Below, in pieces: positions 8,467 through 53,979 of a stretch of 64,000 bases of DNA. This stretch comes from Fidelibacterota bacterium UBA2242 (GTDB taxonomy: Bacteria; Fidelibacterota; UBA2242). Numbering within the stretch: position 1 is the stretch's first letter; every line of letters begins with the position of its first letter. The notes beneath the pieces are model-generated. The model was not told the origin of the DNA. It did not search any database and was given only the letters and a program-made list of their open reading frames with translations. Where the stretch lies: positions 271,685 through 335,684 of the forward strand of contig DDYE01000017.1 of assembly GCA_002347855.1 (NCBI GenBank). Reading direction: 5' to 3'. The translations under genes and the position numbers were made by a program.

Positions 8467-8483
8467 GAGAATGCTTTTCGAAA

Positions 8484-14660: not shown

Positions 14661-14789
14661 CAAAAATCTTGCGCTCCTTTAGCTGATTAGCGATTTGGCG
14701 GGGGAAATAGTTCAGGTTGATATCCAATCATTAAATTGGTTATTGGAAATTTGAGATAATATTGCTAAAATTTCCACGTTATTTGATTA

Positions 14790-17399: not shown

Positions 17400-17426
17400 T
17401 GTTCCAGCCATAAAGGCTGGAACATT
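17398..17426 (+). terminator. Perfect 12-bp stem-loop overlapping the receptor stop codon (possible terminator/attenuator; no U-tract)
   Basis: aatgttccagcc-ataaa-ggctggaacatt, preceded by a T-run and followed by taaagc. Confidence 0.35.
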
Positions 17427-17469
17427 AAAGCGAGTACGAAAAGGTATACTTTTCGTTAGGGGAAATTGT

Positions 17470-17498
17470 TTGTCAAATTGCTGCAATATGCGTAAAAT
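17470..17498 (+). promoter_or_regulatory. Candidate promoter TTGTCA-17-TAAAAT upstream of polA
   Basis: ttgtca aattgctgcaatatgcg taaaat, same architecture as the 9893 site. Confidence 0.3.
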
Positions 17499-17513
17499 TT
17501 TCACGCTTATTAT

Positions 17514-31643: not shown

Positions 31644-32966
31644 ATGAAGAAGATCGCAATGGTAGGGGTTGGTTATGTCGGTTTAGTATCAGGGACCGGC
31701 TTGGCAGATTTTGGTAATGAAGTTATTTGTGTGGATATTGACGAGGACAAAATTGAGCGCCTGAAAAAAGGTATAATTCCTATTTACGAGCCCGGCTTGG
31801 CAGATTTGGTCAAAAAGAATGTGGAAAAGGGTCGTCTGAGCTTTACAACTAATTTCGTCAAAGCCATCGAACAGTCGGAAGTCATTTTCTTAGCGGTGCC
31901 AACTCCCTCAGCGCCCAATGGCGAAGTCGATTTATCCTACATCTTCAACGCTGTTGATACCATTGCAAAACACTTAAGAAGTTATAAAATCATCGTAACC
32001 AAAAGCACGGTGGAAGTCGGGACGAATGACAAAATTCGTCAGTATCTCATAGAGCATGGTGTTTCTGAAGATTTATTCGATGTGGTTTCCAATCCGGAAT
32101 TTTTACGGGAGGGTTCGGCTGTCGATGATTTCATGCGTCCTGACCGCGTCGTTATTGGTACCAGTTCTCCTAAAGCACTGGAAGTCATGCGCGAGATCTA
32201 TCGCACGTTGTATTTAATCGAGACACCAATTGTTGCCACCGACATTCGAACAGCGGAAATGATAAAGTATGCCTCCAATGCTTTTCTGGCTACTAAAATT
32301 TCTTTCATCAACGAAGTTGCCAACCTGTGTGAATTAGTCGGAGCCGATGTTCAGGTTGTGGCGAAAGCAATGGGACTGGATGGTCGTATTGGGAAGAAAT
32401 TTTTACACGCTGGACCAGGATTTGGCGGTTCTTGTTTTCCCAAAGATACCCTGGCTCTAACCAAGATTGCCGAACGGGCTGGGATGCGCGCCACGATTGT
32501 CGAAGCTGTCGTTGCCGTCAATAATAAACAGAAGAAGAGAGTCGTCGAGAAATTGCTGAAATATTTGCCTGATATCAAGAATAAGACAATTGGTATTCTG
32601 GGCTTGGCATTTAAACCCAACACGGATGATGTGCGCGAATCACCGGCTCTGACGGTAATTCAGGAAATCCTGGAGCGCGGTGGCGAAATCAAAGCCTACG
32701 ACCCCGAAGCAATGCACGAAATGCGCAAACATTTTCCTCAAATAACTTATGTAGCCTCGACTGAAGATGCCGTGAAAGGGGTTGATGCTCTCATTATCTT
32801 GACCGAATGGAACGAATTCCGTAATCTCGATTTAAATTATCTGAAGAGTCTCATGAAACGACCGATCTTGATTGACGCGCGCAACATTTACAGTCCTGAA
32901 AAAGTCCTGACGCTGGGATTTATCTATGACTGCATCGGGCGAAAAATCGAAAATAAAGTACAATAA
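31644..32966 (+). CDS. UDP-sugar 6-dehydrogenase (UDP-glucose / UDP-GlcNAc 6-dehydrogenase, Ugd/WbpA family)
   Basis: MKKIAMVGVGYVGLVSGTGLADFGNEV Rossmann motif, catalytic GGSCFPKD. 440 aa. Confidence 0.8.
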   Translation: MKKIAMVGVGYVGLVSGTGLADFGNEVICVDIDEDKIERLKKGIIPIYEPGLADLVKKNVEKGRLSFTTNFVKAIEQSEVIFLAVPTPSAPNGEVDLSYIFNAVDTIAKHLRSYKIIVTKSTVEVGTNDKIRQYLIEHGVSEDLFDVVSNPEFLREGSAVDDFMRPDRVVIGTSSPKALEVMREIYRTLYLIETPIVATDIRTAEMIKYASNAFLATKISFINEVANLCELVGADVQVVAKAMGLDGRIGKKFLHAGPGFGGSCFPKDTLALTKIAERAGMRATIVEAVVAVNNKQKKRVVEKLLKYLPDIKNKTIGILGLAFKPNTDDVRESPALTVIQEILERGGEIKAYDPEAMHEMRKHFPQITYVASTEDAVKGVDALIILTEWNEFRNLDLNYLKSLMKRPILIDARNIYSPEKVLTLGFIYDCIGRKIENKVQ

Positions 32967-33001
32967 TAAACGGTGGGATGAATATGAACCGGGAAGGGAA
33001 A

Positions 33002-34009
33002 ATGGTCTATCTGGTTACGGGTGGGGCTGGTTTCATCGGTAGTAATTACATTCATTATCTTTTTCGGCGCTACCAGAATATCAAGGTCATTAATCTTGAT
33101 AAATTGACTTATGCTGGAAACTTAGCCAATCTGACTGACCTGGAAAGTAATCCTGACTATATTTTCGTCAAAGGTGACATCTGTGACCCAGCAGTAGTAC
33201 ACCAGATATTTCTTGATTATCGTCCTAATTATGTCGTGAATTTTGCGGCTGAAAGCCATGTTGACCGAAGCATCGGTAAGCCCGATGATTTTATCCGTAC
33301 CGATATGTTTGGAGTTTTTATTTTGCTGGAAGCAGCCAAGGAATTTGGCATTGACCGCTTTATTCAAATCAGCACTGATGAGGTGTATGGTTCGATTCTC
33401 AGCGGTTCTTTTACGGAAGAGTCAACCCTGCGACCGAGTAATCCCTATTCTGCTAGCAAAGCCGGCGGCGATCGTCTGGCATATTCATATTTTGCTACCT
33501 ATGGTTTGCCGGTAATTGTGACCCGAGCCTCAAATAATTACGGACCCTATCAATATCCTGAAAAGTTGATTCCTCTCTTTGTAACTAACGCCATCGAAGA
33601 CAAACCCTTACCGCTTTACGGTGATGGAAAAAACATTCGTGACTGGTTATTTGTCGAAGATCACTGTGACGCTATTGAATTTATCTTGCGGAATGGCAAG
33701 AATGGCGAAGTTTATAACATTGCTGGTGGTAGTGAAAAAGAAAATATCGAAATCACAAACCTCATTTTGGAGTTAGTTGGCAAACCTAAAAACTTAATCA
33801 GATATGTGCCAGACCGAATCGGACATGACCGGCGCTATTCACTGGATGCTACGAAATTAAAAAATTTAGGCTGGCAAGCGAGTCACAATTTCCGAGAAGC
33901 AATCGAATTAACAGTTAATTGGTATATCGAACATCCCGAATGGTGGAAACCACTCAAGAGCGGCGAATATCTCGAGTTTTATAAAAAACATTATAAAATG
34001 GAGCTGTGA
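33002..34009 (+). CDS. rfbB: dTDP-glucose 4,6-dehydratase
   Basis: MVYLVTGGAGFIGSN..., YSASKAGGD catalytic YxxxK, extended SDR. GGGAAGGGA RBS; the tool ORF starts at 32978. Confidence 0.85.
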   Translation: MVYLVTGGAGFIGSNYIHYLFRRYQNIKVINLDKLTYAGNLANLTDLESNPDYIFVKGDICDPAVVHQIFLDYRPNYVVNFAAESHVDRSIGKPDDFIRTDMFGVFILLEAAKEFGIDRFIQISTDEVYGSILSGSFTEESTLRPSNPYSASKAGGDRLAYSYFATYGLPVIVTRASNNYGPYQYPEKLIPLFVTNAIEDKPLPLYGDGKNIRDWLFVEDHCDAIEFILRNGKNGEVYNIAGGSEKENIEITNLILELVGKPKNLIRYVPDRIGHDRRYSLDATKLKNLGWQASHNFREAIELTVNWYIEHPEWWKPLKSGEYLEFYKKHYKMEL

Positions 34010-35652: not shown

Positions 35653-36635
35653 ATGAACATGCAGTAAGACACCCGTTAATTTTCTTCATTTGGCGTCATT
35701 GGTTGCGCAATTTTCTAATTTATATTTTAATTTGTATAGCAATTTTTATCAAGATTTTCTTCTATACAGATAAGGAGTATACCGCCAGTTTGACGATTAT
35801 ACCCAGCGCTGCCAATTTTGCTTCTGGCATAAGTGGACAGGTCGGTGTATTAGCCGGTCTGGCGGGTATTAATCTTGCTAATATCTCCGGTCAGAGCCAG
35901 GAAATGTATAAGGGAATTTTGACTTCACGGCGGTTATTGACGACAGTGTTATTTGATTCATTTACCGTTAGTAATCCAACCTTACCGCAAAAAGCTCGCC
36001 TGATTGACTATCTTGATATAGAAGGGCGTGACGGGCGGGATTCTCTGGAAAAAGCCCTAAAAAAATGCAATGAAGAGGTACTCGGAATTGGTATCAATGC
36101 TGATAATAATATACTAAACCTATCTGTTACCCTGCGCGATCCCTTTCTTGCCGCTGCAGTTGCCAATCGTATGGTAATATTACTCGATGAGATCGTCCAG
36201 AAGCAGGTTCAGCGAGAATATCGCGAACAGTTTAATTATCTGACATCGCGTCTGGCTGAAACGGAAAGCAACCTGAAAGTTGCGGAAGAGAAATTGAAAA
36301 ATTTCCTGGAAAATGTACGTAATCCTAATTTACCTTCTAATCAGGTCGAAGAATTGCGCTTACGGCGGGAATTAGAATTACAATCGGTTATTTATGCCGA
36401 GCTGCAAAAACAGAAAGAGACACTGATTTTGCAGAATATGATAAACCTCAGCCATATCAAAATCCTCGACCATGCCATTCCACCGTACCGTAAGAGTAAA
36501 CCCAAGCGGGCTTTGATGCTAATAAGCTTAAGTTGTTTGGCTGCGGTTGGGTTGATAGGTGTTAATGGGAGCCTCTTAATTTATCGGAAACTTAAGCAGG
36601 ATTTTAATCACAGTCAGCTTGAACTTGAAAAATAA
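35649..36635 (+). CDS. Chain-length determinant (Wzz/PCP-like) protein
   Basis: N- and C-terminal TM helices flanking a coiled-coil-rich periplasmic region (AETESNLKVAEEKLKNFLENV...). Confidence 0.5.
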   Translation: MNEHAVRHPLIFFIWRHWLRNFLIYILICIAIFIKIFFYTDKEYTASLTIIPSAANFASGISGQVGVLAGLAGINLANISGQSQEMYKGILTSRRLLTTVLFDSFTVSNPTLPQKARLIDYLDIEGRDGRDSLEKALKKCNEEVLGIGINADNNILNLSVTLRDPFLAAAVANRMVILLDEIVQKQVQREYREQFNYLTSRLAETESNLKVAEEKLKNFLENVRNPNLPSNQVEELRLRRELELQSVIYAELQKQKETLILQNMINLSHIKILDHAIPPYRKSKPKRALMLISLSCLAAVGLIGVNGSLLIYRKLKQDFNHSQLELEK

Positions 36636-37923
36636 CCATTTCCGGCAATATCTCAACAATCGGGAATACCGCAAATTGGCATTTAACTTTACCAATTTTG
36701 GGGTATTTCAGGTCATTAATTATATAATTCCCTTAGTAGTCATTCCATATATTGTACGCGTCATTGGAGTTGAGAAGTTTGGTATCATAAGCTTTGCTCA
36801 AGCTATTTGCTACTATCTACTGATTGTTGTTGAGTATGGTTTTACAATAACTGGTGTCCAACTAATTGCCCAAAATCGTCATAATCAAGCCAAACAGTCT
36901 GAGATATTTTCATCGATAATTATTATTCAAATATTGCTTATGATACTTGGCTTGGCTCTCATCGGGTTAGGAGCACTCCTTTTTCAAGAGGTGCGCCAAT
37001 ATTTTTTGATTTATCTTTTTTCCTATTTGTTGATTCCAGGACAAATAATGGTCGCCCTCTGGTTTTTTATCGGGGTAGAGGAGATGCAGTATCTCAATTA
37101 TGTTAATCTCATTGCCCGCTTAAGCTATATTGCCTTAGTATTTTTATTAGTTCATCACGAAAGTGACTATCCTCGGATTCCTTTGCTTAATGGCATTTCC
37201 TATATTCTGGGAGGGATTTTTAGTCTGGGATTTATCTTTCGCAAATTTAAAATCCGTTTGCAACTGGTTGGAATAGATAAACTGTGGTTTTATTTAAAAG
37301 ACGGGTGGCATCTCTTTGTATCCAATTTTGCTATTAACTTATATCGTAACTCAAATGTAGTCCTCCTCGGTCTGGTCGCCAGTAAAGAGGTTGTCGGCAT
37401 TTATAGTGCTGGTGAGAAAGTAATAAAAGTATTTCAGTCGGTATTTACTCCAATTACACAGACTCTATTTCCATATTTCTCGCGAATTAAAACATCTCAT
37501 CCTGAACGGAGTTTACGATCTATTAAGCTCTTATTAAGAGTTATGTCGCTATTTGCAGGGACGATTACTGTTCTATTAATGCTGGGAGCCAAGCCCTTGA
37601 CAATCCTCATTCTGGGTAAAAGTTTTCTATCCGCCCAGGCAATAATTAAAATCACAGCCGCGGTAGTAACTCTGGGTGTCTTGAATTACATCCTGGGCAT
37701 TATATTTATGACCAATTACGGTCTAAAGCGTGAATTTTCACGGAGTGTTCTTTTGACGGGTGTGTTCAATCTCTTTATTTGTCTCGGACTGTCCTATTTT
37801 TGTCAAGCTATAGGCGCAGCCATAGCCTTCACGGCTGCGGAATTTTTTCTCTTTACTCTTTTAGTTTATTTTATCTTGCGTAATAAATCAAAATGGATGC
37901 AGACTGATGATTTCCAAAGTTGA
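36619..37923 (+). CDS. Oligosaccharide-unit flippase (Wzx-like polysaccharide biosynthesis protein)
   Basis: Polytopic, about 12 TM, 434 aa; position and composition typical of Wzx/MOP-superfamily flippases. Confidence 0.55.
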   Translation: MNLKNNHFRQYLNNREYRKLAFNFTNFGVFQVINYIIPLVVIPYIVRVIGVEKFGIISFAQAICYYLLIVVEYGFTITGVQLIAQNRHNQAKQSEIFSSIIIIQILLMILGLALIGLGALLFQEVRQYFLIYLFSYLLIPGQIMVALWFFIGVEEMQYLNYVNLIARLSYIALVFLLVHHESDYPRIPLLNGISYILGGIFSLGFIFRKFKIRLQLVGIDKLWFYLKDGWHLFVSNFAINLYRNSNVVLLGLVASKEVVGIYSAGEKVIKVFQSVFTPITQTLFPYFSRIKTSHPERSLRSIKLLLRVMSLFAGTITVLLMLGAKPLTILILGKSFLSAQAIIKITAAVVTLGVLNYILGIIFMTNYGLKREFSRSVLLTGVFNLFICLGLSYFCQAIGAAIAFTAAEFFLFTLLVYFILRNKSKWMQTDDFQS

Positions 37924-38971
37924 GCCACTCGTAACTATTATCATCTTAAACTGGAATAAATGGCAAGATACAGTCGAATGTCTCGCAAGCTTGAGCCATC
38001 TTACTTATCCTAATTATCGTATTGTGCTGGTCGATAATAATTCACTTAATGATTCTGTGACTCAGATAAAGGCTTTCTTAACGGGTCAGAGAGTGGAAGG
38101 CATTCAGACTCATTTCTCTCAATTGGTTGAAAGACCCGATATGACCAAACTGCAATTCATGATTCAAAAGATTGATAATTACCCATTCGATTATTCCTCT
38201 TTTCAAGATGACAGCGGGCAACATTTATGGTTGTTGCTTTCGGAAAACCTTGGTTTTGCGCGGGCAAATAACTTAGCAATTGCAATAGCTAGCCAGCTCT
38301 ATAACCCGGATTATTTCTTTTTGTTGAACAATGATACTGTCGTTGAACCTGATGCCGTGACGCATTTAGTGACGGCTATGACTTCCGACGCGACGATTGC
38401 CGCGGCGCAACCGGTCATTTACTATTATTCTAATCCCGTTCAGATTGCCAATGCGGGAGGCATAATTTTGCCCTGGGGACAGACACGCTATTATACCAAA
38501 ATTAGAGCCCATACCTGGCAGAAAATTACGTTCATCAATGGTTGTGCCCTTTTTTTACGTCGAGAAACTATCGAAAAGTTCGGCGCACTCACCGAGCGTT
38601 TCTTTTTTGCGGAAGAGGATTTTGAATATAGTCTACGCTTAAAACGGCAGCGTGCCAGGGCAATTTGTGTTGCTGATAGTAAGATATATCATAAAATCGG
38701 AGCATCAGAGATTGCACAAAATATTGAACGGAAAGTGGTTTTATTTGCCGTCAACCGGCTGGTTGACCTGAAACATTACTATGTGCCTATTATCTGGCGT
38801 TTCTGGGCAAGCCTTAGTTTGCTCTATTTCTGGGGTCTCTTGTTTTTTAAATATCGGGTTGGCTGGAAAAAGTCTGCTAATCTAATTTCTGAAGCCAGGC
38901 AATGGGTTCATCAAGTTTCTGAAGTTGATAAAGATACGGTTATGGCAATTCTCCGAAGGGGCGTTCAGTGA
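37907..38971 (+). CDS. Glycosyltransferase family 2
   Basis: VTIIILNWNKWQDTVECLASL...YRIVLVDNNS, a GT-A N-terminal motif, and a DxD-like FAEEDFE. Confidence 0.7.
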   Translation: MISKVEPLVTIIILNWNKWQDTVECLASLSHLTYPNYRIVLVDNNSLNDSVTQIKAFLTGQRVEGIQTHFSQLVERPDMTKLQFMIQKIDNYPFDYSSFQDDSGQHLWLLLSENLGFARANNLAIAIASQLYNPDYFFLLNNDTVVEPDAVTHLVTAMTSDATIAAAQPVIYYYSNPVQIANAGGIILPWGQTRYYTKIRAHTWQKITFINGCALFLRRETIEKFGALTERFFFAEEDFEYSLRLKRQRARAICVADSKIYHKIGASEIAQNIERKVVLFAVNRLVDLKHYYVPIIWRFWASLSLLYFWGLLFFKYRVGWKKSANLISEARQWVHQVSEVDKDTVMAILRRGVQ

Positions 38972-40248
38972 TTTTACAACTCACCAGTTTAATGTTTGCG
39001 GGAATTGTAACCTGTCTGACAGTTTTTGATAAGCGTCGCCTTAATACTATTTTAACGCCCTTCACAGTAACTGCCTGGCCCTTTGTGATAATATCTTTGT
39101 TGGTCAATTTTGTTCTGGTTTTTCTACAATTCAAGCCAATGACTCTGCGGGTACATTTTTTTATTTTAGCGAATTTGCTCATCCTCTGGCTTAGTGGTTT
39201 TGTGCTTGCCTTTTTTGTCAATGGAGGCAACCAGAGATTAGATGAGACTCCTTTGAGCGCTATTTTCAAGGTGTTTGCATCTTACGAACTTTTTCTTGTG
39301 ACAGTTAGTTGGTTAATTATTGTTGTGACTCTCTATCGGGCTTATAGCCTGCTAAGGATTTATGGTGGATTTACCTTCTTAGGTGACTATCGTTTTGAAG
39401 AATTGATGATTGTTGGTCCCGTTGCCCATCTTGTGCAAGTTGGTAAGGTCTGTTTTCTTTTGCTCTGCTTTATTTATAAGAATTCTAAGCACAAAGTGTT
39501 AATTTGGTTGACGCTGGCTGGATTGTTCATTGCTATTGCTGCTATTCAGGTGAAATACCATCTGCTCTGGTTGTTAATCATAGCGTACTTTTTCTATTAC
39601 CTTGAGAAGCCGGTAAAACAGCAGGTCAAAAATTTACTTTTAGTTATGTTTAGTGTGATAGTAATTATGAATTTGTTCTGGATTCTGCTGACCTTAGCGT
39701 GGGGGACTTTCTCCATTTCCAGTCGAGGTATCCATGAATTTTTAATTAAACAGACCATGAATTATATTACAACCGGTCCAGTAGCCTTAGACCAGTGGTT
39801 ATCGCATGGAGACTGTAAGCCAGAGTGGACGCTTTTGCTCGTATTCCTGAATTTGAAAAATGTAATTATGGGTAATCCTCTCCGGTTAAGTGGTTTAAAC
39901 TATGTCAATCTGGGTTTTATCGAGACGGGTCCAGGTTTGAGTTCTAATGTTGGTACCGCGTACGGGGTATATTATCTCATTGGTGGCTGGGTGTTTACTC
40001 TTTTTATGACAACCATAGTTTCGCTTTTTTCATACTGGATATTTTACAAAACTCGGCAGCGGAAAAATCCTTACTTAGTATTTTTTAATCTTCTGGCATT
40101 AACCTTAGGAGTTTTGACTTTTTTCGTCCAGTATTTTACTCTCCTGTCACTTTACGAAATGACAGCAATCTATATGTTCTTAATTGCCGTTTTTCAGTTC
40201 TTGAATTATATGAAAGCCCAACAATTACCGATAGAGTTAAGCCATTGA
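38968..40248 (+). CDS. Polytopic membrane protein, candidate O-antigen/oligosaccharide polymerase (Wzy-like)
   Basis: About 11-12 TM helices with a larger loop near the C-terminal third. Locus context with Wzx and Wzz. Confidence 0.45.
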   Translation: MILQLTSLMFAGIVTCLTVFDKRRLNTILTPFTVTAWPFVIISLLVNFVLVFLQFKPMTLRVHFFILANLLILWLSGFVLAFFVNGGNQRLDETPLSAIFKVFASYELFLVTVSWLIIVVTLYRAYSLLRIYGGFTFLGDYRFEELMIVGPVAHLVQVGKVCFLLLCFIYKNSKHKVLIWLTLAGLFIAIAAIQVKYHLLWLLIIAYFFYYLEKPVKQQVKNLLLVMFSVIVIMNLFWILLTLAWGTFSISSRGIHEFLIKQTMNYITTGPVALDQWLSHGDCKPEWTLLLVFLNLKNVIMGNPLRLSGLNYVNLGFIETGPGLSSNVGTAYGVYYLIGGWVFTLFMTTIVSLFSYWIFYKTRQRKNPYLVFFNLLALTLGVLTFFVQYFTLLSLYEMTAIYMFLIAVFQFLNYMKAQQLPIELSH

Positions 40249-43474: not shown

Positions 43475-45477
43475 ATCTTAGCCTTCCATTTTATCTTCTC
43501 AAAGAGATGGGACCGAGATGGGTTTTCTATCGTGGTCTGTACTGGCTTTACCAGCGTACTAGGCTCCAGCAATTATTTTTTCCTGCACGCCAAATTAATT
43601 TTCAGCAGTACTCAAAACTACCGCTTGATTTTTCGAAGGAAGAGATAAAGTCATGTTTAAATTTCTGGCTTGGCAAGGTGGATGAACACGCTAATCTCAG
43701 GAGTTTTTATAACGATTATCCTGAAATTCAATCTCAAATTAAAAATCGCTATACTGCCCTGAAAGCCGGCCGCTTCACCTTTTTTTCAAAGTTAGAATTT
43801 GATTTGGGATTGCCACCGAATTGGTTTTTAAGCCCACAGACCTCCAAAACCAGTCAGGCGAATTGCCACTGGACAAAAATTCGTGACTTCGATGCAAGCC
43901 TTGGTGATATTAAATTCGTCTGGGAATTATCACGTTTTGCCTGGGTTTATGATCTTGTGCGATACTATGTATTGACGGAGGATGAAGAAGCAGTAGAACT
44001 GTTCTGGTACTTATTTGAAGATTGGATTACAAAGAATTTTCCGGAAAAAGGACCGCATTGGAAATGTGGTCAGGAAATTGCCATGCGCTCTTTAGCGGTT
44101 CTATTCGTACTCCAGCATACCTTTTATGCTAAAGCAACTACCCCGACAAGAATACGTCTGGCTGGGGGCTTCTTACGGTATAATGCCCAACATATTAAGC
44201 GCAACTTTTGGTATGCTAATCGCTCAATTAAAAATAATCATACGATTAGTGAAGCTGCCGGTTTATATCTCATCGGTAATTTCCTAAAGTATCTGAAGGA
44301 ATCTGCTCAATGGAGAAAAATCGGCAAGCGTACTTTAGAACGGGAAATTCAGCGTCAGGTTTATATTGACGGAACTTATTTGCAGCATTCGTTTAATTAC
44401 GAGCGTTTAGTTGTCCAGTGGCTATGTGTGTGTCTTACCGCAAATAAATGGGGTGCAGATGAATTTTCAAGAGAAATTACCCAACGGCTAAGAAGCATGG
44501 CCGAAACGCTTTATCAACTCCAGGATGAGCATAGTGGGCAACTGCCCAATTATGGTGCAAATGATGGAACGCTTTTGCAGCCGCTAACATCCTGCGACTA
44601 TTTAGATTACCGACCACAGCTGCAAGCTGCCTACTTTTTGACCACGCGACGCCGTCTATATGTACCGGGCATCTGGGACGAATTATTAATCTGGTTGCAG
44701 GGAGTGGTTCCGGAAGAAACTGCCCGTGATAAAATTCAGCGCATCACCTCTGCTTTTGAAATTGGAGGCTACTATATTCTACGATTAACTGAAGATGAAC
44801 CTCATTTTATGTTGCGGTGTGCTAATTATCATCACCGCCCTGGGCATGCTGACATGCTTCACCTGGATTTTTGGTACGGCGGAGTAAATGTCCTCACTGA
44901 CTCTGGTACCTTTTCTTACTTTCCAGCGGATGAGGCAAAAATGGGCTTTGTCGAGACTAAAGCCCATAACACCGTCTGGGTCGATGGACGCAGTCAGATG
45001 GATCACTGGGGTGCGTTTCTTTGGACAAAATGGACTAAATCCAAACTGGTGCGTTTTGTCAAAGAAACAGAGCAAATCAAATGGGAAGGCGAGGTTTATG
45101 ACCATCAAGGAATAATCCACAATCGCAGCCTAATTCTGCGAAATGGTTTATGTATTGTCCGTGATCGAATCGTCGGCAATTTTAATTTTGCTGAGATTAA
45201 TTGGAACGTTAATGCTCTCATTTTATCCCAAAATGATTATTGGCAAATTCAGATTGGCGATAGGTCGCTTTACATTCTTACTAATTATCAGTTAGAAGCC
45301 ATCCCAGGTGAAATTTCCCGCTATTATGGTCATCTGGAAAAAATCACTCGTTTGCATAGTAGACAAAAATCAAACCAAGAGAAGGTAATTTGGGTAACAT
45401 TATTAGCGTGGAGTAATGCGGAATCACCCTTAGAAATTGATAAATTAAGACGACAATATTTATTTCGTGAAAATTGA
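43471..45477 (+). CDS. Heparinase II/III-like protein (alginate-lyase/heparinase fold; possible polysaccharide-modifying enzyme)
   Basis: About 668 aa starting MNLSLPFYLLKEMG (the tool ORF starts upstream at 43363). Central YANRSIKNNHTISEAAGLY...GTYLQHSFNYERLVVQW resembles the heparinase II/III alpha-toroid region. Confidence 0.6.
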   Translation: MNLSLPFYLLKEMGPRWVFYRGLYWLYQRTRLQQLFFPARQINFQQYSKLPLDFSKEEIKSCLNFWLGKVDEHANLRSFYNDYPEIQSQIKNRYTALKAGRFTFFSKLEFDLGLPPNWFLSPQTSKTSQANCHWTKIRDFDASLGDIKFVWELSRFAWVYDLVRYYVLTEDEEAVELFWYLFEDWITKNFPEKGPHWKCGQEIAMRSLAVLFVLQHTFYAKATTPTRIRLAGGFLRYNAQHIKRNFWYANRSIKNNHTISEAAGLYLIGNFLKYLKESAQWRKIGKRTLEREIQRQVYIDGTYLQHSFNYERLVVQWLCVCLTANKWGADEFSREITQRLRSMAETLYQLQDEHSGQLPNYGANDGTLLQPLTSCDYLDYRPQLQAAYFLTTRRRLYVPGIWDELLIWLQGVVPEETARDKIQRITSAFEIGGYYILRLTEDEPHFMLRCANYHHRPGHADMLHLDFWYGGVNVLTDSGTFSYFPADEAKMGFVETKAHNTVWVDGRSQMDHWGAFLWTKWTKSKLVRFVKETEQIKWEGEVYDHQGIIHNRSLILRNGLCIVRDRIVGNFNFAEINWNVNALILSQNDYWQIQIGDRSLYILTNYQLEAIPGEISRYYGHLEKITRLHSRQKSNQEKVIWVTLLAWSNAESPLEIDKLRRQYLFREN

Positions 45478-46709
45478 TTATGCGTGTTCTTTATATCCAC
45501 CAATATTTTAATACTCATCGTGAAGCCGGTGGGTCGCGCTCATATTCCTTAGCCAGAGCCCTCATAGCAAAAGGACATCAGGTTGTGATGTTAACTTCGA
45601 ATCGCAATAATCCTGACCTACCAGCGGTCTACTCCTGTCAGATTGATGGGATTGAAGTCGTATATGTTAAGAATCGCTATTCGAACAAGATGGGTTTTCT
45701 GCGGCGGATTTTATCCTTCTTACATTTTATGTTCATGTCTATTTTGGTGGCCTCACGAGTGCGCAATATTGATCTGGTTTTTGCTACTTCGACGCCCTTA
45801 ACAGTCGGTATACCAGGGATAATTTTTAAAAGGCTTTATAAGGTTCCTTTTGTCTTTGAAGTTCGTGATTTATGGCCTGAGTTAGCAATTGCCATGGGAA
45901 TAATTAAAAATCGAATAGTTATTAATGTAACCAGCTGGTTGGAAGCAAAAATTTATCAGGAATCTGACCATATTATCAGTTTAGCGCCGGGAATCACCAA
46001 GGGCATAATTGCTAAAAGCGTTCCGGCAGAAAAGGTGACTATGATTTCCAACGGCTGCGACCTGAATTTATTTAGAGCAGAGGTACACTCACAACCATCT
46101 AACTGGCAATTTCAGGAAGAAGATTTAGTTCTGGTTTATGCTGGCACTCATGGATTGGCGAATGGTTTACAATGGGTGATAGAGGTAGCCAAAGAAGCCA
46201 AACTGCGTCGCCAAATACGCATAAAATTTGTTTTGATTGGTGATGGTATGACTAAGCCTGATCTGATTAGACAAAAAGAGCAATTTGAATTAGACAATGT
46301 ATTTTTTCTCGATCCAATGCCTAAGCAACAATTAGTCGATTATTTAGCAGCAGCAGATATGGGTATGCAATTATTGGCAAATGTGCCTTCTTTTTATTAT
46401 GGTACATCACCCAATAAATTTTTTGATTATCTGGCGGCAGGAAAACCGGTTTTAAATAATTATCCCGGTTGGGTGGCAGACTTAATTCGTCAATGGCAAT
46501 GTGGGATTGTTGTCAGATCTGATGACTATGATGATTTTTTCAGGCAAATTGAGCCGTTAATTACTAATCGCCAATTATTGAAAGCGATGGGGGAGAGAGC
46601 GCGGAATTTGGCTTCTGCTCATTTTAGACGAGATGAGCTTGCTACGCGTTTTGTCCAGACTCTGGAGTGTACTTGTCGTGAATATCAGGAGAGGAGGACA
46701 GCTATTTAA
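45474..46709 (+). CDS. Glycosyltransferase family 4 (WbuB/WcaI-like)
   Basis: MRVLYIHQYFNTHREAGGSRSYSLARALIAKGHQVVMLTS N-terminus, characteristic of GT4 WbuB-type enzymes. Confidence 0.75.
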   Translation: MIMRVLYIHQYFNTHREAGGSRSYSLARALIAKGHQVVMLTSNRNNPDLPAVYSCQIDGIEVVYVKNRYSNKMGFLRRILSFLHFMFMSILVASRVRNIDLVFATSTPLTVGIPGIIFKRLYKVPFVFEVRDLWPELAIAMGIIKNRIVINVTSWLEAKIYQESDHIISLAPGITKGIIAKSVPAEKVTMISNGCDLNLFRAEVHSQPSNWQFQEEDLVLVYAGTHGLANGLQWVIEVAKEAKLRRQIRIKFVLIGDGMTKPDLIRQKEQFELDNVFFLDPMPKQQLVDYLAAADMGMQLLANVPSFYYGTSPNKFFDYLAAGKPVLNNYPGWVADLIRQWQCGIVVRSDDYDDFFRQIEPLITNRQLLKAMGERARNLASAHFRRDELATRFVQTLECTCREYQERRTAI

Positions 46710-47374
46710 TGGCTTCCTTAAAAGACATTGTTATTGTTGGGGCTGGGGGACATGCCAAAGAAATTGCTTATTTAATCGAAGCGATCAATCTTGAAAAACC
46801 GACCTGGAATCTTTTAGGAATGATAGAACGGGATGCGCAGAACATCGGGAAACCATGCGGTAAATATAGTGTTATTGGCGATGACACCTTTTTCCAAAAG
46901 CGTTATGCTAACCTTAATGTAGTAGTCGCAATTGGGCAACCGCAGCGAGTCAAACAAATTTATACCAGTTTGCAGAATGAATATCCGGAATTGCTCTTCC
47001 CGAATTTAATATTTCCTACCGTCCAGCCTGGTTTGCGAGAGGTAGCGATGGGAATTGGTAACATCATTTGCGAAGGAAACATTTTTACGACGGATATTCA
47101 ACTTGGCTCATTTAATTGTCTTAATCGCGGGAATAATATCAGTCATGATGTTAAAATTGGGGATTTTGTGACGATAAATCCAGGAGTTAACATTTCCGGT
47201 GGGGTAGTAATTGAGTCGGAATGCCTGATTGGTACGGGCGCAACGATTTTGCAATATTTAACAATTGGGAGAGGAGCGGTCGTCGGTGCAGGGGCAGTCG
47301 TTACGAAAAATGTTTCCCCATCTACGACTGTAATTGGAGTTCCTGCTCAACCATTAAAGAGAAAAATTGTTTAA
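46709..47374 (+). CDS. Sugar N-/O-acetyltransferase, NeuD/PglD/WbpD hexapeptide-repeat family
   Basis: N-terminal Rossmann-like IVIVGAGGHAKEI, C-terminal left-handed beta-helix hexapeptide repeats. Confidence 0.75.
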   Translation: MASLKDIVIVGAGGHAKEIAYLIEAINLEKPTWNLLGMIERDAQNIGKPCGKYSVIGDDTFFQKRYANLNVVVAIGQPQRVKQIYTSLQNEYPELLFPNLIFPTVQPGLREVAMGIGNIICEGNIFTTDIQLGSFNCLNRGNNISHDVKIGDFVTINPGVNISGGVVIESECLIGTGATILQYLTIGRGAVVGAGAVVTKNVSPSTTVIGVPAQPLKRKIV

Positions 47375-48364
47375 ATGGAGGTAGTATTGCGAGTCTTAAT
47401 TACGGGAGGTGCTGGGTATATAGGTTCAGTTTTGACCCGGCAACTTTTAGAAAAAGGATATCAAGTCCGTGTCTTGGATTGTCTGAATTATGGAGGCGAG
47501 TCAATCCTCGGTGTTTTAAGCAATCCGAATTTTGAGTTTTTACGGGGAGATATTCGCAGAAAAGCTGATGTCGCAGAAGCACTTCAGGATGTTGATGCGG
47601 TAGTGCATTTAGCGGCTATTGTGGGCGATCCGGCTTGTGCCAAACAACCACAATTAGCGCGTGAGACTAATCTTAATGCCTCACTGATGTTATATGAACT
47701 TTGCCAGAATCAATCAAGCGTGAAGCGTTTCGTTTTTGCATCCACTTGCAGTAATTATGGCAAGATGGAGGGTAGCGATTATATTGATGAGACAGCGCCG
47801 CTTAAACCGATTTCGCTTTATGCCGAATTGAAAGTAGCTTTTGAGCAGCATCTACTGAGTTCAAAAACTCGTGGCGATTTTATCCCGACCGCCTTGCGGT
47901 TTGCTACCGTTTACGGGATTTCGCCAAGGATGCGCTTTGACTTGACCGTGAATGAATTCACACGCGATGCCGCTCTGGGACGCGAGTTGGTGATTTACGG
48001 TGAGCAATTCTGGCGTCCTTATTGTCATGTAGAAGACCTGGCACGGGCGTGTGCTTTAATTCTGGAATCTCCTTGCGATAAAGTAGATCATGAGGTTTTT
48101 GGTGTCGGTGATAAATCGGAAAATTATCAGAAAAAGATGCTTGCCGAAGAAATTAAACGCATTTTACCGGAAACAAAAGTCAAGTATGTCCACAAAGATG
48201 AAGATCCGCGTGATTATCGAGTAGACTTTACCAAAATAAAAAAGCAATTAGGATTCTCAATAACCAAAACCGTTCCACAGGGAATTCGCGAAATTGTCTT
48301 TGTTATTCAGAATGGTATTTTGCACGATCCCTTCAATAAAATTTATTCAAATATCTCGGAGTAA
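47375..48364 (+). CDS. NAD-dependent nucleotide-sugar epimerase/dehydratase (extended SDR)
   Basis: VLITGGAGYIGSVL; YAELK catalytic YxxxK. Confidence 0.75.
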   Translation: MEVVLRVLITGGAGYIGSVLTRQLLEKGYQVRVLDCLNYGGESILGVLSNPNFEFLRGDIRRKADVAEALQDVDAVVHLAAIVGDPACAKQPQLARETNLNASLMLYELCQNQSSVKRFVFASTCSNYGKMEGSDYIDETAPLKPISLYAELKVAFEQHLLSSKTRGDFIPTALRFATVYGISPRMRFDLTVNEFTRDAALGRELVIYGEQFWRPYCHVEDLARACALILESPCDKVDHEVFGVGDKSENYQKKMLAEEIKRILPETKVKYVHKDEDPRDYRVDFTKIKKQLGFSITKTVPQGIREIVFVIQNGILHDPFNKIYSNISE

Positions 48365-48366
48365 GT

Positions 48367-49527
48367 ATGATTCCACTTTCTGTCCCGCACATAGCTGGTA
48401 ACGAATGGCAGTATATCAAAGAATGCCTGGATACTGAATGGGTCTCTTCAGCCGGTAAATATGTCGATTTATTTGAACAACAGGTTGCTAAACTGGCCGG
48501 TTCCAAATTTGCGATCGCTTGCGTGAATGGCACTGCTGCTTTGCAAGTTGCTTTAGAAGTTGCCGGTCTAAAACCTGACGAAGAGGTAATAGTCCCAACT
48601 CTTACCTTCATCGCTTCCGTGAATGCAGTGCGTTATAACCGAGCTGAACCAATTTTTTTTGATTGCGATGACTATTACTGTCTTAATATTGATAAAATAA
48701 TCGAGTTCATTCGACAGGAAACTATTTTTAAACATGGTGCGAGTTTTAACCGTAAGACTGGTAAGCGGATAAGAGCCTTGGTAGCAGTCCACGTTTTTGG
48801 AAATGCGGTTAATCTGGAACCACTGTTGGAGCTTTGTCACGAGCGGGGCATCCTTGTAGTCGAAGATGCAGCTGAAAGTATTGGTACAGTTTATCGCGGG
48901 GGAAAGCTGGACGGCAAAGCCACTGGTGTCGTCGGTGACATTGGTTTTTATAGTTTCAATGGCAATAAAATTATCACGACTGGAGGCGGCGGGATGATTG
49001 TTACAAATAATTCCGAGTATGCCGAACGAGCCCGTTACCTGACGACTCAAGCCAAAGATGATGAGGTTCGCTATATTCACCATAACATTGGCTACAATTA
49101 TCGTTTGACCAATATCCAGGCGGCCTTAGGCGTTGCCCAACTCGAAAAATTAGGAGAGTATATCGAAAGAAAGCGCACGAATTATCAATATTTTAAACAG
49201 GCTATTGATCAAATTCCCGGTCTCCATCTGGCTGAAGTTCCACCCTATTGTGAACCCAATTATTGGTTCTATAATTTGCAAATTGATAAGGACATCTACG
49301 GGCGGGATAGAGAAGAATTATTGGCACTTTTTACCGCAGAAAAAATTCAGGTGCGACCAGTCTGGTATTTAAATCACTGGCAAAAGCCTTATGTAAAAAA
49401 TCAAACCTATAAAATCGAAAAAGCCATCCAACTATTCGAAAAAACTTTGAATATTCCCTGTTCCGTCAATTTAACCACAGAGCAACGCACTAAGGTTATT
49501 GAGGTGCTAAAAAATGGTCAACGCTAA
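48367..49527 (+). CDS. DegT/DnrJ/EryC1/StrS-family PLP-dependent sugar aminotransferase
   Basis: IPLSVPHIAGNEWQYIKECLDTEWVSS; YSFNGNKIITTGGGGMIV, the Lys-containing PLP region. Confidence 0.85.
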   Translation: MIPLSVPHIAGNEWQYIKECLDTEWVSSAGKYVDLFEQQVAKLAGSKFAIACVNGTAALQVALEVAGLKPDEEVIVPTLTFIASVNAVRYNRAEPIFFDCDDYYCLNIDKIIEFIRQETIFKHGASFNRKTGKRIRALVAVHVFGNAVNLEPLLELCHERGILVVEDAAESIGTVYRGGKLDGKATGVVGDIGFYSFNGNKIITTGGGGMIVTNNSEYAERARYLTTQAKDDEVRYIHHNIGYNYRLTNIQAALGVAQLEKLGEYIERKRTNYQYFKQAIDQIPGLHLAEVPPYCEPNYWFYNLQIDKDIYGRDREELLALFTAEKIQVRPVWYLNHWQKPYVKNQTYKIEKAIQLFEKTLNIPCSVNLTTEQRTKVIEVLKNGQR

Positions 49528-50206: not shown

Positions 50207-50229
50207 CTATTTAGTATCTTAAGGTATAT

Positions 50230-51228: not shown

Positions 51229-51393
51229 AAAGACTTGCAGTATAATCATAAAGCTTGTATATTAAATTAGTATGTGGAAAGATAGAGGTAAATAAAACGC
51301 ATTGATAGCCGTCATATCTATCTGAATTCACTTTACTGACATTACTTCCCAGATAACTAAAGCAGAGTGAATAACTAACAAGATCGCATAATC

Positions 51394-53979
51394 TTGGCAA
51401 AAAGTGTCATTTTAGCTGGAGGAATTATTGTGCTTAGTTGGCTGATTATGATTTTATTGATTACCTTTTTAGCGGCACTCTTTTTCACCCGAGTTGCCCG
51501 CTCGATTGCGCTCAAATATCACATCGGTGATATGCCCAATGCCCGCAAAGTGCATAAAACCTTTATGCCCTATCTAGGAGGAGCAGCCATACTCCTGGCG
51601 ATAATTCTCGGGACGATTTTGTCGGTATATATCTTACCTGACGTTGCTGGTCCTGTGCCAAGGCGTTACTATTTCTTAGGAATAACTGCGGTAGCTATTG
51701 CCTTGGTTGGGCTTTATGATGATTTAAAAAAATTACGCTTCACGACAAAATTTTACTGCCAGTTTATCGCTGCCATGGTAGTGATCGCGGGTGGTTTGCG
51801 CTTTACCTCTATTTATATTCCGTATATCGGTGATATTTACCTGGGGTGGAGCGGGTACATATTTACCCTGCTTTGGATAATATTTATTACCAATGCCATG
51901 AATTTATTGGATGGCTTGGACGGCTTGGCAGCTGGTGTCTCATCGATTATTTTTCTGACTTTTGCTATCATTGCGTTGCATAGTGGGCGAACACTGGTAG
52001 CGCTTGTCAATTTATTACTGATTGCTGCTAACTTAGGATTTTTGAAATATAACTACCATCCGGCTACTATTTTTATGGGAGACACGGGTTCCCTCTTCCT
52101 GGGATTTGCCACGGCGATTATTTCGCTGGAAATAGGACGCATTGGAGAAAGTGACCATCTGAATGTCATTCTTCCTTTGACTGTGATGGCGATGCCAGTA
52201 TTAGATACAACTATTGCTTTTTTCAGACGAGCCAGTAAACGCATGCATCCTTTTAAAGCCGATAAAGAGCATATTCATCATCGTCTAATGTCGATAGGAT
52301 TTTCGCATAAAAATGCTGTCAAGGTCATCTATTTTATTAGTGCCTGTACTGGTCTGATGGGACTTTCTTTCATCTTTTTGGACCGAAAGGGAATCATCAC
52401 TGCACTTTTCTGCGGATTGGTCTTCACGATGATACTAATACGTCGGCTGGGATATTTTGAAATTGAGAAGAATTTAATTGTCGTGCCCAATAGCAATGGT
52501 AATGGGAACAGTTCCACTAATGGATTATTAAATGGCAATGGTCACAAAGAGCAAAAATTTATTCCTTTCGATACTTCGCAATTTGTTCAGGCGGCGCTCT
52601 TTTTCTTGAGCGATGCAATCTTCTGTTGTTTAACCTTTCTACTGGTCTATTTCTATGAAATCAAGGTAATGCTGCCCTCTAACAGTGCTCTTGCGCCTTA
52701 TGATTTAAGCTTATGGATGGTTTGGTCGGTTTTGTACTGGAGCATTTTGCTTGGTTTAAATAATCTCTATCATATTGAATGGGACACCTCGCGCATTGAT
52801 GAAATCTTCTCAGTTTTTAAAATAGTCTTTTTCGGTACGGTAGTCCTCTTTTTCCTGAGTTTTGAAATAAAAATTCCCTTTCTCGTCTCTCGCCGCGTAT
52901 TTCTGCCTTATGGTATTCTATTAACGATTGGTCTCGGCCTCGGACGTATCCTGCTGATTTCCTTTTTAAAATCCAGAGAGATTTTAGAGTTCAAGAAAAG
53001 ACCGACTATTATTATTGGACTCTCCAATTCTGCTATGAATGTCGTTAAAAAAATCAACAATATGCCCGTTCTCAAATTTCAATTGGTTGGTTTTATTGAT
53101 GATAAAAACAATGGCAATGTCGGGCAGGTAATTCAAAATCTTCCCGTATTGGGCAATTACGCCGATATTCCGCAAGTGATTAAAAAATACAAAATCAAGG
53201 AAGTCATAATTGCTATTGATGACAACGACATCAATAAAGTCATGGATTTGATTGCCTGGTTCTGTCAATACAATGTTTCGATTAAATTAGTGCCAGATTT
53301 TTACAACCTGCTGACTGGTTTTAAAACTGCTCATATTTATGGTATTTCGCTGATAAAATTTTTTGACTCCAATATGAAAACCTGGGAATGGGTGCTCAAG
53401 CGTCTAATCGACATCATCATTTCCCTCATTGTGTTAATCGTATTTGCACCGTTCTGGCTGATTATCAGCATCATTATCAAACTGGATTCGCCTGGACCCG
53501 TCTTTTATCGTCAGAAACGGGTAGGCAAGAATCGTCAGGAATATGAATTAATCAAATTTCGCTCCATGGTTCAAAATGCTGAGGAATTGACCGGACCAAA
53601 ATGGGCGGAGAAAGATGATCCGCGGGTGACCCGTTTTGGGCGCTTTTTGCGTAAATATGGCTTGGATGAAATTCCGCAATTTTTCAATGTTCTGATTGGT
53701 GATATGAGCATTGTTGGTCCTCGTCCAGAGCGTCCCTTTTTCGTCAATGAGCTGGAGCATTCGATTCAATTTTATTCACGCCGCTTGATTGTCAAGCCTG
53801 GTATTACGGGTTGGGCTCAGATTAAATATAAGTACGATGAGACCATCGAAGATGTGCGTGAGAAATTACGCTATGATTTATATTATATTGAGAATATGTC
53901 GGTGCTGCTCGATTTAAAAATAATTGTTCGAACTCTATTGGTCGGTCTGCGCAAAAAGCATCATATTGCTTACGTCTAA
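51394..53979 (+). CDS. Fusion protein: N-terminal WecA/MraY-type polyprenyl-phosphate N-acetylhexosamine-1-P transferase + linker + full-length WbaP-type polyprenyl glycosylphosphotransferase
   Basis: Residues about 1-360: [24 protein letters not shown] and [12 protein letters not shown] (PNPT/MraY-WecA signature). Asn/Gly-rich linker [17 protein letters not shown]. Residues about 400-861: four TM, a CoA-binding-like domain, then [15 protein letters not shown]...FKFRSM...[10 protein letters not shown]...[10 protein letters not shown] (bacterial sugar transferase). Probable start GTG about 51430 after GGAGGA. Confidence 0.7.

Follow-up and report, generated by a model that had tools for sequence, protein, structure and literature searches.

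The stretch of DNA analysed here (the window) comprises 64,000 nucleotides of contig DDYE01000017.1 from Fidelibacterota bacterium UBA2242 (GenBank assembly GCA_002347855.1, forward-strand positions 271,685 to 335,684), and its positions 31644–53979 carry 17 co-directional open reading frames (ORFs), all on the plus strand, which form a surface-polysaccharide locus (Table 1). The overlapping layout reported in a preliminary description of the sequence was confirmed: neighbouring genes overlap by 1–17 nt at most junctions from 34006 to 49527, with the heparinase-like gene taken to start at 43471, a position set after its ortholog. The only sizeable gaps are those before ugd (31483/31644, 160 nt), before the last gene (51228/51430, 201 nt) and before serS (53979/54055, 75 nt). 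Housekeeping genes on the same strand lie on both sides, with alr, cmk, rpsA, a YbbR protein gene, tsaD and a gene for a 707-aa protein of unknown function on the left, and serS and genes for a class II aldolase, an acyltransferase and a DUF2851 protein on the right. Judged by the source names of its homologs, the window belongs to the Marinimicrobia (SAR406/Neomarinimicrobiota). The locus is also AT-richer than its flanks, as had been suggested, although the dip is small (41.05% GC versus 42.6% and 43.6%); GC at third codon positions is 0.35–0.39 over 41.3–51.2 kb, compared with approximately 0.37–0.47 (mostly ≥0.40) in the flanking genes. A scan of 44.5–54.5 kb returned 25 promoter-like sites, where 26.7 would be expected by chance, and 15 terminator-like ones, where the expectation was 9.3 ± 3.1. 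Families were assigned with Pfam and NCBIfam profiles and their cutoffs, matches to sequences in the PDB are given in bits, and signal peptides and membrane segments were judged by a crude hydropathy scan.

Table 1. Genes and features of the polysaccharide locus, with positions counted from the first nucleotide of the window.
Feature	Position	Strand	Support and remarks
ugd, UDP-glucose 6-dehydrogenase	31644..32966	+	Three UDPG_MGDP_dh Pfam domains; conserved core gene, 5' end of the locus
rmlB, dTDP-glucose 4,6-dehydratase	32978..34009	+	TIGR01181, 456 bits (cutoff 365); conserved core gene
Wza-type outer-membrane polysaccharide export protein (OPX), 548 aa	34006..35652	+	Poly_export and several SLBB domains; first variable gene
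Wzz-like co-polymerase without kinase domain, 328 aa	35649..36635	+	GNVR, 38.8 bits (cutoff 27.7)
Wzx flippase	36619..37923	+	Polysacc_synt, 157.8 bits; multi-spanning
Family 2 glycosyltransferase (GT2)	37907..38971	+	Glycos_transf_2, 65.6 bits
Wzy repeat-unit polymerase	38968..40248	+	TIGR04370, 42.5 bits (cutoff 40); DUF6337, 95.9 bits; about 11–13 hydrophobic segments
Family 4 glycosyltransferase (GT4) a	40245..41351	+	Glyco_transf_4 and Glycos_transf_1
Bi-domain oxidoreductase (zinc-ADH and Gfo/Idh/MocA modules)	41348..43474	+	Pfam; module A
Heparinase II/III-fold protein, predicted cytoplasmic	43471..45477	+	Hepar_II_III_N and Hepar_II_III_C; module A
GT4 glycosyltransferase b	45474..46709	+	Glyco_trans_4_4 and Glycos_transf_1; third member of module A
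PglD/VioB-family sugar N-acetyltransferase	46709..47374	+	PglD_N and Hexapep; TIGR03570, 180 bits (cutoff 161); module B
Short-chain dehydrogenase/reductase (SDR), C4-epimerase/C4-dehydrogenase type	47375..48364	+	PDB 6VO6, 194 bits, then 6WJB/6WJ9, about 118 bits; module B
DegT-family C4 aminotransferase (LegC/PglE/perosamine synthase type)	48367..49527	+	TIGR04181, 465 bits (cutoff 420); module B
Small monotopic phosphoglycosyl transferase, PglC-size, 230 aa	49514..50206	+	Bac_transf, 171.5 bits; module B
Exported lipoprotein-like carbohydrate-active protein (candidate), 332 aa	50230..51228	+	N-terminus MGFKFPKIIVLISLVGLSDC; last variable gene
Intergenic region, right-hand divergence breakpoint	51229..51429	.	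Identity step against the L001 locus
Fusion of a WecA/MraY-type polytopic part (residues 1 to about 340) and a full-length WbaP/WcaJ-type large monotopic part (residues about 380–849)	51430..53979	+	PF00953, PF13727 and PF02397

By its gene content the locus is of the Wzx/Wzy-dependent capsule or exopolysaccharide (EPS) type, with predicted Wza/OPX export rather than an O antigen: flippase, polymerase, co-polymerase and initiating phosphoglycosyl transferase domains (Bac_transf and Glycos_transf_4) occur together in it, and no WaaL-type ligase was seen in the locus. The heteropolysaccharide machinery proposed earlier (Wza-, Wzz-, Wzx- and Wzy-like proteins and one GT2) was thereby recovered with Pfam and NCBIfam models. 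The Wza protein matches Poly_export (31.7 bits, cutoff 28), SLBB (75.8 bits) and SLBB_2 (52.3 bits) and begins with a signal-like sequence, while a hydrophobic helix (521–539) lies in its C-terminal part. The Wzz-like protein scores 22.4 bits with the Wzz model itself, under the cutoff of 25.5, and has one hydrophobic helix at either end, while the GT2 has a weak match to a rhamnosyltransferase subfamily (48.8 bits, under that cutoff). GT4 enzymes are present, but only two of the three that had been listed; the supposed third probably reflects the similarly named Pfam domain Glycos_transf_4, which denotes a WecA/MraY-type phosphotransferase and occurs in the last gene. The arrangement resembles the E. 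coli group 1 capsule and colanic acid systems in its lipid-carrier repeats, flipping by Wzx, polymerisation by Wzy, Wza-type channel and co-polymerase, from which it differs in that the co-polymerase is short and lacks the kinase domain, there is no Wzb phosphatase gene and Wza is unusually long.

Comparison with the corresponding loci of relatives (designated here by L numbers) separated a conserved frame from a variable centre. The left flank was reached in relatives through homologs of the 707-aa neighbour, and at the same site in L015 and L017 the order cmk, rpsA, YbbR, tsaD, 707-aa gene, ugd, rmlB, wza, wzz is kept, with identities for ugd (82–85%) and rmlB (78–81%) above that for tsaD (68%). 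A tblastn search with the window Wza found no match at E ≤ 1e-8 to the Wza genes of L015 (14642–15901) or L017 (12356–13594). These genes encode 412–419 aa, whereas the window protein has extra SLBB repeats, even though the upstream genes are approximately 80% identical; in L015 a MurJ-family protein (17050–18549) occupies the Wzx position within the same conserved frame. The Wzz-like protein is 43–46% identical in L002, L003 and L017. In L002 and L003, whose flanks are 71–73% identical, wzz, wzx, GT2 and wzy are 39–45% identical and the segment corresponding to 41.3–51.2 kb is replaced by a GT4 gene, a FemAB-like gene and a polysaccharide deacetylase gene.

The right-hand edge was mapped against L001, where the right flank is near-conspecific (fusion gene and serS 96% identical, downstream genes 93–96%) but eight cassette proteins are only 66–87% identical. 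In 500-nt bins, DNA identity to L001 is 67–80% over 41.35–51.3 kb, 85% in 51348–51847, 94–97% over the next 3 kb and 90–97% to the end of the window. In relatives, the variable part, from approximately 34.0 to 51.3–51.5 kb, has thus either been exchanged or changed far more quickly than its surroundings, and it is enclosed by a conserved core frame made up of ugd and rmlB at its left end and of the fusion transferase at its right end. The variable, serotype-like character anticipated for the locus was therefore upheld by the relatives, whereas the edges expected at 31.5 and 54.0 kb were displaced inwards. At the cassette edges we found no tRNA or mobile-element gene, and a repeat search returned only short, chance-level matches.

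The assignments of the two left-hand frame genes are clear. The ugd product scores 571 bits with the TuaD-type model and 505 bits with TIGR03026, against 86 bits for TviB, and its best PDB match is the UDP-glucose dehydrogenase of Sphingomonas (4A7P, 481 bits), followed by the Burkholderia enzyme (383–387 bits), compared with 163 bits for Cap5O and 134 bits for 3G79 among N-acetylhexosamine (HexNAc) dehydrogenases. The rmlB gene, which was missing from the earlier account of the locus, encodes a protein with both the STDEVYG and the YxxxK motifs and a 404-bit match to PDB 6BI4. A role for this ORF as a UDP-xylose synthase partner of Ugd was discarded, given RmlB structures at 280–404 bits and a score above the TIGR01181 cutoff. 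The scanned ORFs of the window include no rmlA, rmlC or rmlD.

The frame gene on the right encodes a fusion of two kinds of phosphoglycosyl transferase. Its first in-frame start, at 51394, gives an ORF of 861 aa, and the most likely start, at 51430, gives the 849-aa form found in databases. In the 861-aa ORF, residues 21–324 match WecA (TIGR02380, 146 bits) and residues 407–856 match the full-length WcaJ-type model (TIGR03023, 401 bits, just under the cutoff of 411); the monotopic half also scores 438 bits with TIGR03025 (cutoff 296) and 64 bits with CoA_binding_3. Because the WecA score lies under its cutoff of 326, the GlcNAc specificity of this half is presumptive. Among the best 120 homologs, 112 are full length with the same three Pfam domains, and their source names include Marinimicrobia, Ignavibacteriae, Bacteroidota and Calditrichota. 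The motifs DD, NxxNxxDGxDGL, FMGD (in full (V/I)FMGDxGS) and HxHH (HIHH in the window), as well as PRP and PGITGW, show no variation among the 112 proteins. Of these, 91 retain the Asp-Glu dyad, including the window protein (LDEIPQ), and it is replaced by Tyr-Lys in the 21 most distant (P0100–P0120), among them that of Caldithrix abyssi, indicating that the monotopic half may be non-catalytic in this branch. An AlphaFold2 model built from 67 sequences (predicted local distance difference test 79.8, predicted TM-score 0.75) has a disordered linker at 343–375, and Foldseek placed WbaP (8T53) at the top, with target-normalised TM-scores of 0.7–0.8 for MraY and scores of 0.8–0.86 for PglC. Compared with WecA, the N-terminal half keeps the four motifs and the MraY-like fold; compared with WbaP/WcaJ, the C-terminal half keeps the four-helix bundle, a CoA_binding_3-type domain, the dyad and PRP; here the two are joined in one polypeptide by approximately 35 disordered residues. 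No description of such a polytopic–monotopic fusion was found in the literature searched, which did not cover a 2021 survey of monotopic enzymes.

The fusion gene adjoins serS in all relatives examined, both Marinimicrobia and other phyla of the Fibrobacteres–Chlorobi–Bacteroidetes (FCB) group, and the two genes diverge nearly equally (fusion/serS identities of 96/96, 72/73 and 59/68%), which places the fusion gene in the chromosome backbone rather than in the cassette. In the more distant L005 and L006, rsmA, tatD and metG precede the fusion gene and serS, and no polysaccharide genes occur in the 10 kb upstream. These observations bear on the redundancy of initiating transferases noted earlier, which is real, as three phosphoglycosyl-transferase catalytic domains lie within 4.5 kb. 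Such crowding would be expected if the locus encoded two separate glycan assembly lines, with the small transferase priming one and the fusion enzyme the other. However, there is a single Wzx, a single Wzy, a single Wzz-like protein and a single Wza, and since the fusion enzyme is part of the backbone, where it persists even if the 10 kb upstream contain no polysaccharide genes, the redundancy is explained without a second line, which we regard as highly improbable. A tentative proposal is that both halves of the fusion are active as mechanistically unrelated undecaprenyl-phosphate priming enzymes (a WecA-type GlcNAc-1-phosphate and a WbaP/WcaJ-type hexose-1-phosphate transferase) and that the protein might serve Marinimicrobia and other FCB-group bacteria as a core hub allotting the lipid carrier to different glycans. 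If this were true, the monotopic half of the Calditrichota-like branch, which lacks the dyad, would be a regulatory or scaffolding domain.

Within the variable centre, three genes (module A) encode the bi-domain oxidoreductase, the heparinase-fold protein and the second GT4. More than 8000 homologs of the oxidoreductase, named 'bi-domain-containing oxidoreductase' at NCBI, occur at 55–60% identity in many phyla, including very distant lineages. The heparinase II/III-like protein reported earlier is present, with both Pfam domains over cutoff (Hepar_II_III_N 68.1 bits, cutoff 22; Hepar_II_III_C 85.9 bits, cutoff 24). The hydropathy scan detected neither a signal peptide nor a hydrophobic segment in it, giving no sign of a secreted or periplasmic location, and its similarity to true heparinases is very low (≤42 bits). 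Its gene lies next to or near the oxidoreductase gene in L001, L019–L021, L024 and L025, and residues N256-H257, Y310, H499-N500, H550 and R552 are invariant across seven heparinase-like proteins that co-occur with the oxidoreductase. The Asn-His pair and the Tyr approximately 55 residues downstream presumably correspond to the carboxylate-neutralising and proton-transfer residues of related lyases, and the invariant N-H, Y and H-N residues would fit abstraction of a C5 proton by a lyase and an epimerase alike. Heparinase II/III and GT4 genes follow the oxidoreductase gene within two genes in Manganitrophus (Nitrospirota), a Sulfuricaulis-like gammaproteobacterium and a Hodarchaeota metagenome-assembled genome (MAG), and two of these three genomes have a gene for UDP-GlcNAc 2-epimerase close by. 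In the Hodarchaeota MAG (GCA_048887365.1, L021, 5042–11549), on a contig assigned to an Asgard archaeon, where the oxidoreductase is 56% identical, the trio stands beside a Wzy_C protein, a finding that reflects either inter-domain transfer or a binning error.

The association of the heparinase-like protein with the oxidoreductase and a GT4 in seven loci of distant lineages argues for a role in donor-sugar synthesis. Alternatively, the protein might cleave the finished uronate polysaccharide, as a lyase or trimming enzyme of the AlgL kind, and the redox role of the oxidoreductase would then be unrelated to it. Many EPS loci include an enzyme that degrades their polymer, and both heparinase domains are certainly there; however, the polymer is assembled outside the cytoplasm, where a protein with no recognisable signal peptide or membrane segment would not meet it, and the low similarity to true heparinases, the conserved linkage just described and the presence of an exported carbohydrate-active candidate elsewhere in the locus (50230–51228) all speak against such a lyase, which we consider very unlikely. 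The uronate C5 chemistry suggested earlier for this protein therefore stands as plausible, in the form of a cytoplasmic, uronate-directed activity, given the missing signal peptide and the invariant residues.

That exported 332-aa protein had been called a BNR protein, a label that we could not sustain, as neither the Asp-box motif SxDxGxTW nor a BNR Pfam match even at E ≤ 5 was found in it. It carries two SPDGxxW motifs instead and matches the five-bladed-propeller families GH32N, GH130 and GH43 weakly (E of approximately 1e-4 to 1e-2), and it scores 55 bits with 6N1A, which is labelled 'carbohydrate-binding protein', suggesting that it is probably a five-bladed beta-propeller.

The closest parallels to module A lie on plasmids. 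In a tblastn search of plasmids, the oxidoreductase gene was found on 132 Ralstonia megaplasmids and one Sphingobium plasmid, at 54% identity in both. The Ralstonia eps cluster begins with genes for Wza, Wzc, Epimerase_2, a nucleotide-sugar dehydrogenase, a 436-aa protein that matches no Pfam family, an EpsG-family polymerase and a glycosyltransferase, and continues with the bi-domain oxidoreductase, heparinase-like protein, GT4, small Bac_transf protein, acetyltransferase and DegT aminotransferase (54, 32, 47, 31, 44 and 30% identical, respectively, to the window proteins). In the R. solanacearum polymer EPS-I, the repeating unit is a trimer that contains N-acylated galactosamine, galactosaminuronic acid and bacillosamine (PMC12846841; PMC3759889). 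The window shares with this cluster Wza, a co-polymerase, a polymerase and module A followed side by side by the module-B families except the SDR, whereas a Wzc tyrosine kinase, wecB/wecC-type genes (Epimerase_2 and the dehydrogenase) and an EpsG-family polymerase belong to EPS-I only; the window has in their place a kinase-less Wzz, Ugd and RmlB, an additional short SDR, another gene order in module B and a small transferase with an Asn-Glu pair. The Sphingobium locus is laid out like the Ralstonia cluster: in the RefSeq order, a PglF-like epimerase/dehydratase gene, wecB, wecC and two hypothetical genes precede the bi-domain oxidoreductase, heparinase II/III-family and GT4 genes, which are followed by sugar transferase, acetyltransferase and DegT genes and then by genes for an O-antigen-ligase-family protein, an export protein and a tyrosine autokinase. 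The second GT4 of the window scores 110 bits with the WcaI family (under cutoff); the GT4 enzymes encoded after the heparinase-like gene in Ralstonia and Sphingobium share 47% and 41% identity with it, respectively.

By stereochemistry, L-GalNAcA is the 3,5-epimer of D-ManNAcA, a relation that would fit one redox inversion plus one C5 inversion and also the wecB/wecC genes of the other loci. Acinetobacter encodes WeeE/WeeF (GnlA/GnlB) in neighbouring genes; synthesis of UDP-L-GalNAcA is the function postulated for this pair, and a heparinase-like fold is reported for GnlB (PMC9676051; bioRxiv 10.64898/2026.07.20.739706). The likeness of module A to the emulsan wee and A. baumannii gnlA–gnlB systems consists in such an adjacent pair with a heparinase-like member; GnlA would be the presumed counterpart of the bi-domain oxidoreductase, and the functions of GnlA and GnlB are themselves postulated. 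The acetyltransferase of the window also resembles the Acinetobacter enzymes 7TXP and 4M9C. By analogy with these systems, we read 41348–46709 as a putative donor-sugar module for an epimerised uronic acid with a dedicated GT4.

The next four genes (46709–50206) are read, from the families of their products, as a predicted 4-amino-sugar module with its own priming enzyme (module B). Among PDB entries the acetyltransferase is closest to VioB (99 bits), followed by 4M9C (85 bits), 4M98 from Neisseria pilin glycosylation (67 bits) and PerB (65 bits), and scores 30 bits with the WbpD-type 3MQG; VioB, 4M9C, the Neisseria enzyme and PerB all act on 4-amino-4,6-dideoxy sugars. The aminotransferase is of the C4 type, with 237 bits for GDP-perosamine synthase (3BN1) and 230 bits for PglE (1O61). 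For the SDR, the best PDB match (6VO6) is, we believe, the Campylobacter GDP-heptose C4-dehydrogenase Cj1427, and the next (6WJ9/6WJB) we take to be the UDP-GlcNAc 4-epimerase PelX. Its active-site region reads ASTCSNYG...YAELK, with neither the TDE nor the STDKA dehydratase motif (the RmlB of the locus has STDEVYG), and an assignment as a 4,6-dehydratase was not adopted on these grounds. A C4 aminotransferase, a PglD_N acetyltransferase and a PglC-sized transferase thus stand side by side, as in the PglF–PglE–PglD–PglC route of Campylobacter and Neisseria. In L022 and L023 the same four genes, in the same order and with products 58–73% identical to those of the window, head an unrelated Wza/Wzz locus, and no further priming enzyme was called in the 16.7 kb read. 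This recurrence argues that module B is a self-contained mobile unit and that its small transferase is probably functional.

These assignments also bear on the pathway named in the preliminary description, in which the locus would make UDP-2,3-diacetamido-2,3-dideoxy-glucuronic (or mannuronic) acid with WbpA-, WbpB-, WbpE- and WbpD-like enzymes. All four broad classes (nucleotide-sugar dehydrogenase, Gfo/Idh/MocA oxidoreductase, DegT aminotransferase and hexapeptide acetyltransferase) are present, and the Gfo/Idh/MocA domain has a weak 83-bit match to an archaeal UDP-GlcNAc 3-dehydrogenase model (cutoff 450). At the level of specific families, however, none of the four memberships held. The dehydrogenase is, by similarity, specific for UDP-glucose. 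The oxidoreductase is indeed a Gfo/Idh/MocA protein fused to a zinc ADH, as described, but the domain is not stand-alone, its best matches are generic (iolG, 114 bits; PDB 6JW6, 80 bits), no WbpB/WlbA entry occurs among the best 60 of its 63 PDB matches, and its gene travels with the heparinase-fold protein and a GT4 rather than with the aminotransferase. The aminotransferase passes the LegC cutoff and scores only 92 bits with WbpE (3NU7), and the acetyltransferase, which carries a PglD_N domain, is far closer to VioB than to the WbpD type. The likeness to P. aeruginosa WbpA/WbpB/WbpE/WbpD(/WbpI) is thus one of broad enzyme superfamilies; reassignment of these enzymes, named beforehand as the outcome that would overturn the UDP-GlcNAc3NAcA route, is what the searches returned for this pathway, and we give it practically no weight.

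We therefore favour, with a probability of roughly 0.6, a capsule/EPS-type locus that consists of a conserved frame around an exchangeable centre, in which modules A and B would act as follows. Module B would produce a 4-acetamido-4-deoxy sugar, most likely a 4,6-dideoxy sugar of the bacillosamine/viosamine type, through a C4-keto intermediate, transamination at C4 and N-acetylation, and its small phosphoglycosyl transferase would load this amino sugar onto undecaprenyl phosphate. Module A would convert a cytoplasmic UDP-uronic acid into an epimerised uronic acid, possibly an L-configured sugar of the GalNAcA type, if Ralstonia EPS-I and Acinetobacter emulsan are valid analogies; inversion of a ring carbon via a keto intermediate would fall to the bi-domain oxidoreductase and removal of the C5 proton beside the carboxylate to the heparinase-fold protein, and the GT4 of the module would attach the resulting sugar to the primed lipid. 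A repeat of some four sugars would be finished by the GT2 and the remaining GT4, the likely donors being UDP-GlcA and a dTDP-6-deoxyhexose, after which Wzx would flip the repeat, Wzy would polymerise it, the Wzz-like protein would set the chain length and Wza would export the chain. The exported propeller protein may trim or process the polymer, and the fusion transferase would act as a housekeeping primer for other cassette types and probably for other glycans too.

Several observations weigh against this reading. In module A, the wecB/wecC genes that would supply UDP-ManNAcA are absent from the locus and from the window ORFs scanned, and Ugd is the only uronate supplier seen, so the module may act on UDP-GlcA and yield another product; because its enzymes are biochemically uncharacterised, the role proposed for it rests on co-occurrence with one known polymer composition. 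In module B, the lack of the dehydratase acid/base motif in the SDR leaves 6-deoxygenation a proposal, neither the locus nor the window ORFs scanned include a PglF-type dehydratase, and identity to the Ralstonia and Sphingobium counterparts is only 30–44%. Nor do those ORFs include rmlA. The small transferase reads KINELPQL where PglC (8G1N) has SLDELPQL, Asn thus replacing the catalytic Asp of the Asp-Glu dyad. A GLLLP loop and an aromatic box (Y118, Y122, W150, F154 and F197 in C. concisus PglC) form the PglC signature specific for N,N'-diacetylbacillosamine (PMC10186338); the window enzyme has GLITT at the loop, and Gln and Thr occupy the only two box positions covered by the alignment with 8G1N, which ends before the rest. 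Because of the Asn-Glu pair and the missing signature, which together with the SDR type and the absent dehydratase set module B apart from the Pgl route, we name its sugar by type only.

The Asn-Glu form is nevertheless a maintained one. Among the 150 nearest 50%-cluster representatives (P0251–P0400), 46 have this form and 96 have Asp-Glu, and the L001 ortholog (8088–8780) also reads INELPQL. The proteins with Asn-Glu thus form a sizeable clade, with some longer fused forms of 584–918 aa, whose members either can do without the Asp or have a different activity. We discarded the possibility of a decayed pseudogene on the basis of these counts and of L022 and L023, where the small transferase is the sole visible priming enzyme.

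The missing Asp and the unlike-dehydratase character of the SDR would both be understandable if module B drew on the in-locus RmlB product and made dTDP-4-acetamido-4,6-dideoxy-D-glucose (N-acetylviosamine) or a related dTDP sugar, which a glycosyltransferase would add while the fusion enzyme primes; RmlB is encoded in the locus, and VioB is the best solved relative of the acetyltransferase. Yet the module recurs in L022 and L023 with its own SDR and small transferase, and tblastn with the window RmlB returned there only a 25% match to the module SDR. Nor is rmlB dedicated to the module, since relatives without the module conserve this gene too. The aminotransferase falls within the LegC-family model, which covers HexNAc-derived substrates, the persistence of the Asn-Glu form among the nearest representatives argues against decay, and the lack of rmlA among the window ORFs scanned counts against this route as well. 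We consider the viosamine route unlikely and retain the module with its own priming enzyme as the preferred account.

Three other features of the window were recorded. The 707-aa protein encoded at 29360–31483 has hydrophobic N- and C-terminal segments and no Pfam match, and only 10 homologs were found among 5.8 billion sequences; its gene keeps its place between tsaD and ugd, and because its identity falls to 41% and 33% in relatives that share 68% in TsaD, we read it as a fast-evolving envelope protein. A selenocysteine tRNA gene (anticodon TCA) lies at 14569–14661, and is followed by a thiamine pyrophosphate riboswitch at 14790–14893 (66.5 bits, gathering score 54.3), which either immediately precedes an 859-aa ORF (14820–17399) or overlaps its start.

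This is a surface-polysaccharide locus of an ordinary kind in a poorly known phylum, and its points of wider interest are the priming-enzyme fusion and the widespread, uncharacterised module A. To our knowledge, the surface of the Marinimicrobia (SAR406/Neomarinimicrobiota), abundant uncultured bacteria of the ocean, is almost wholly undescribed. The frame-plus-cassette variability found here is of the kind that underlies serotypes and escape from phages and grazers in cultured bacteria, and the breakpoints are mapped well enough for typing environmental populations. The conserved fusion joins two unrelated classes of initiating transferases in one protein. Finally, the module-A trio can be linked to one setting in which the polymer product is known, Ralstonia EPS-I, and this link provides a testable hypothesis for how L-configured amino-uronic acids may be made.

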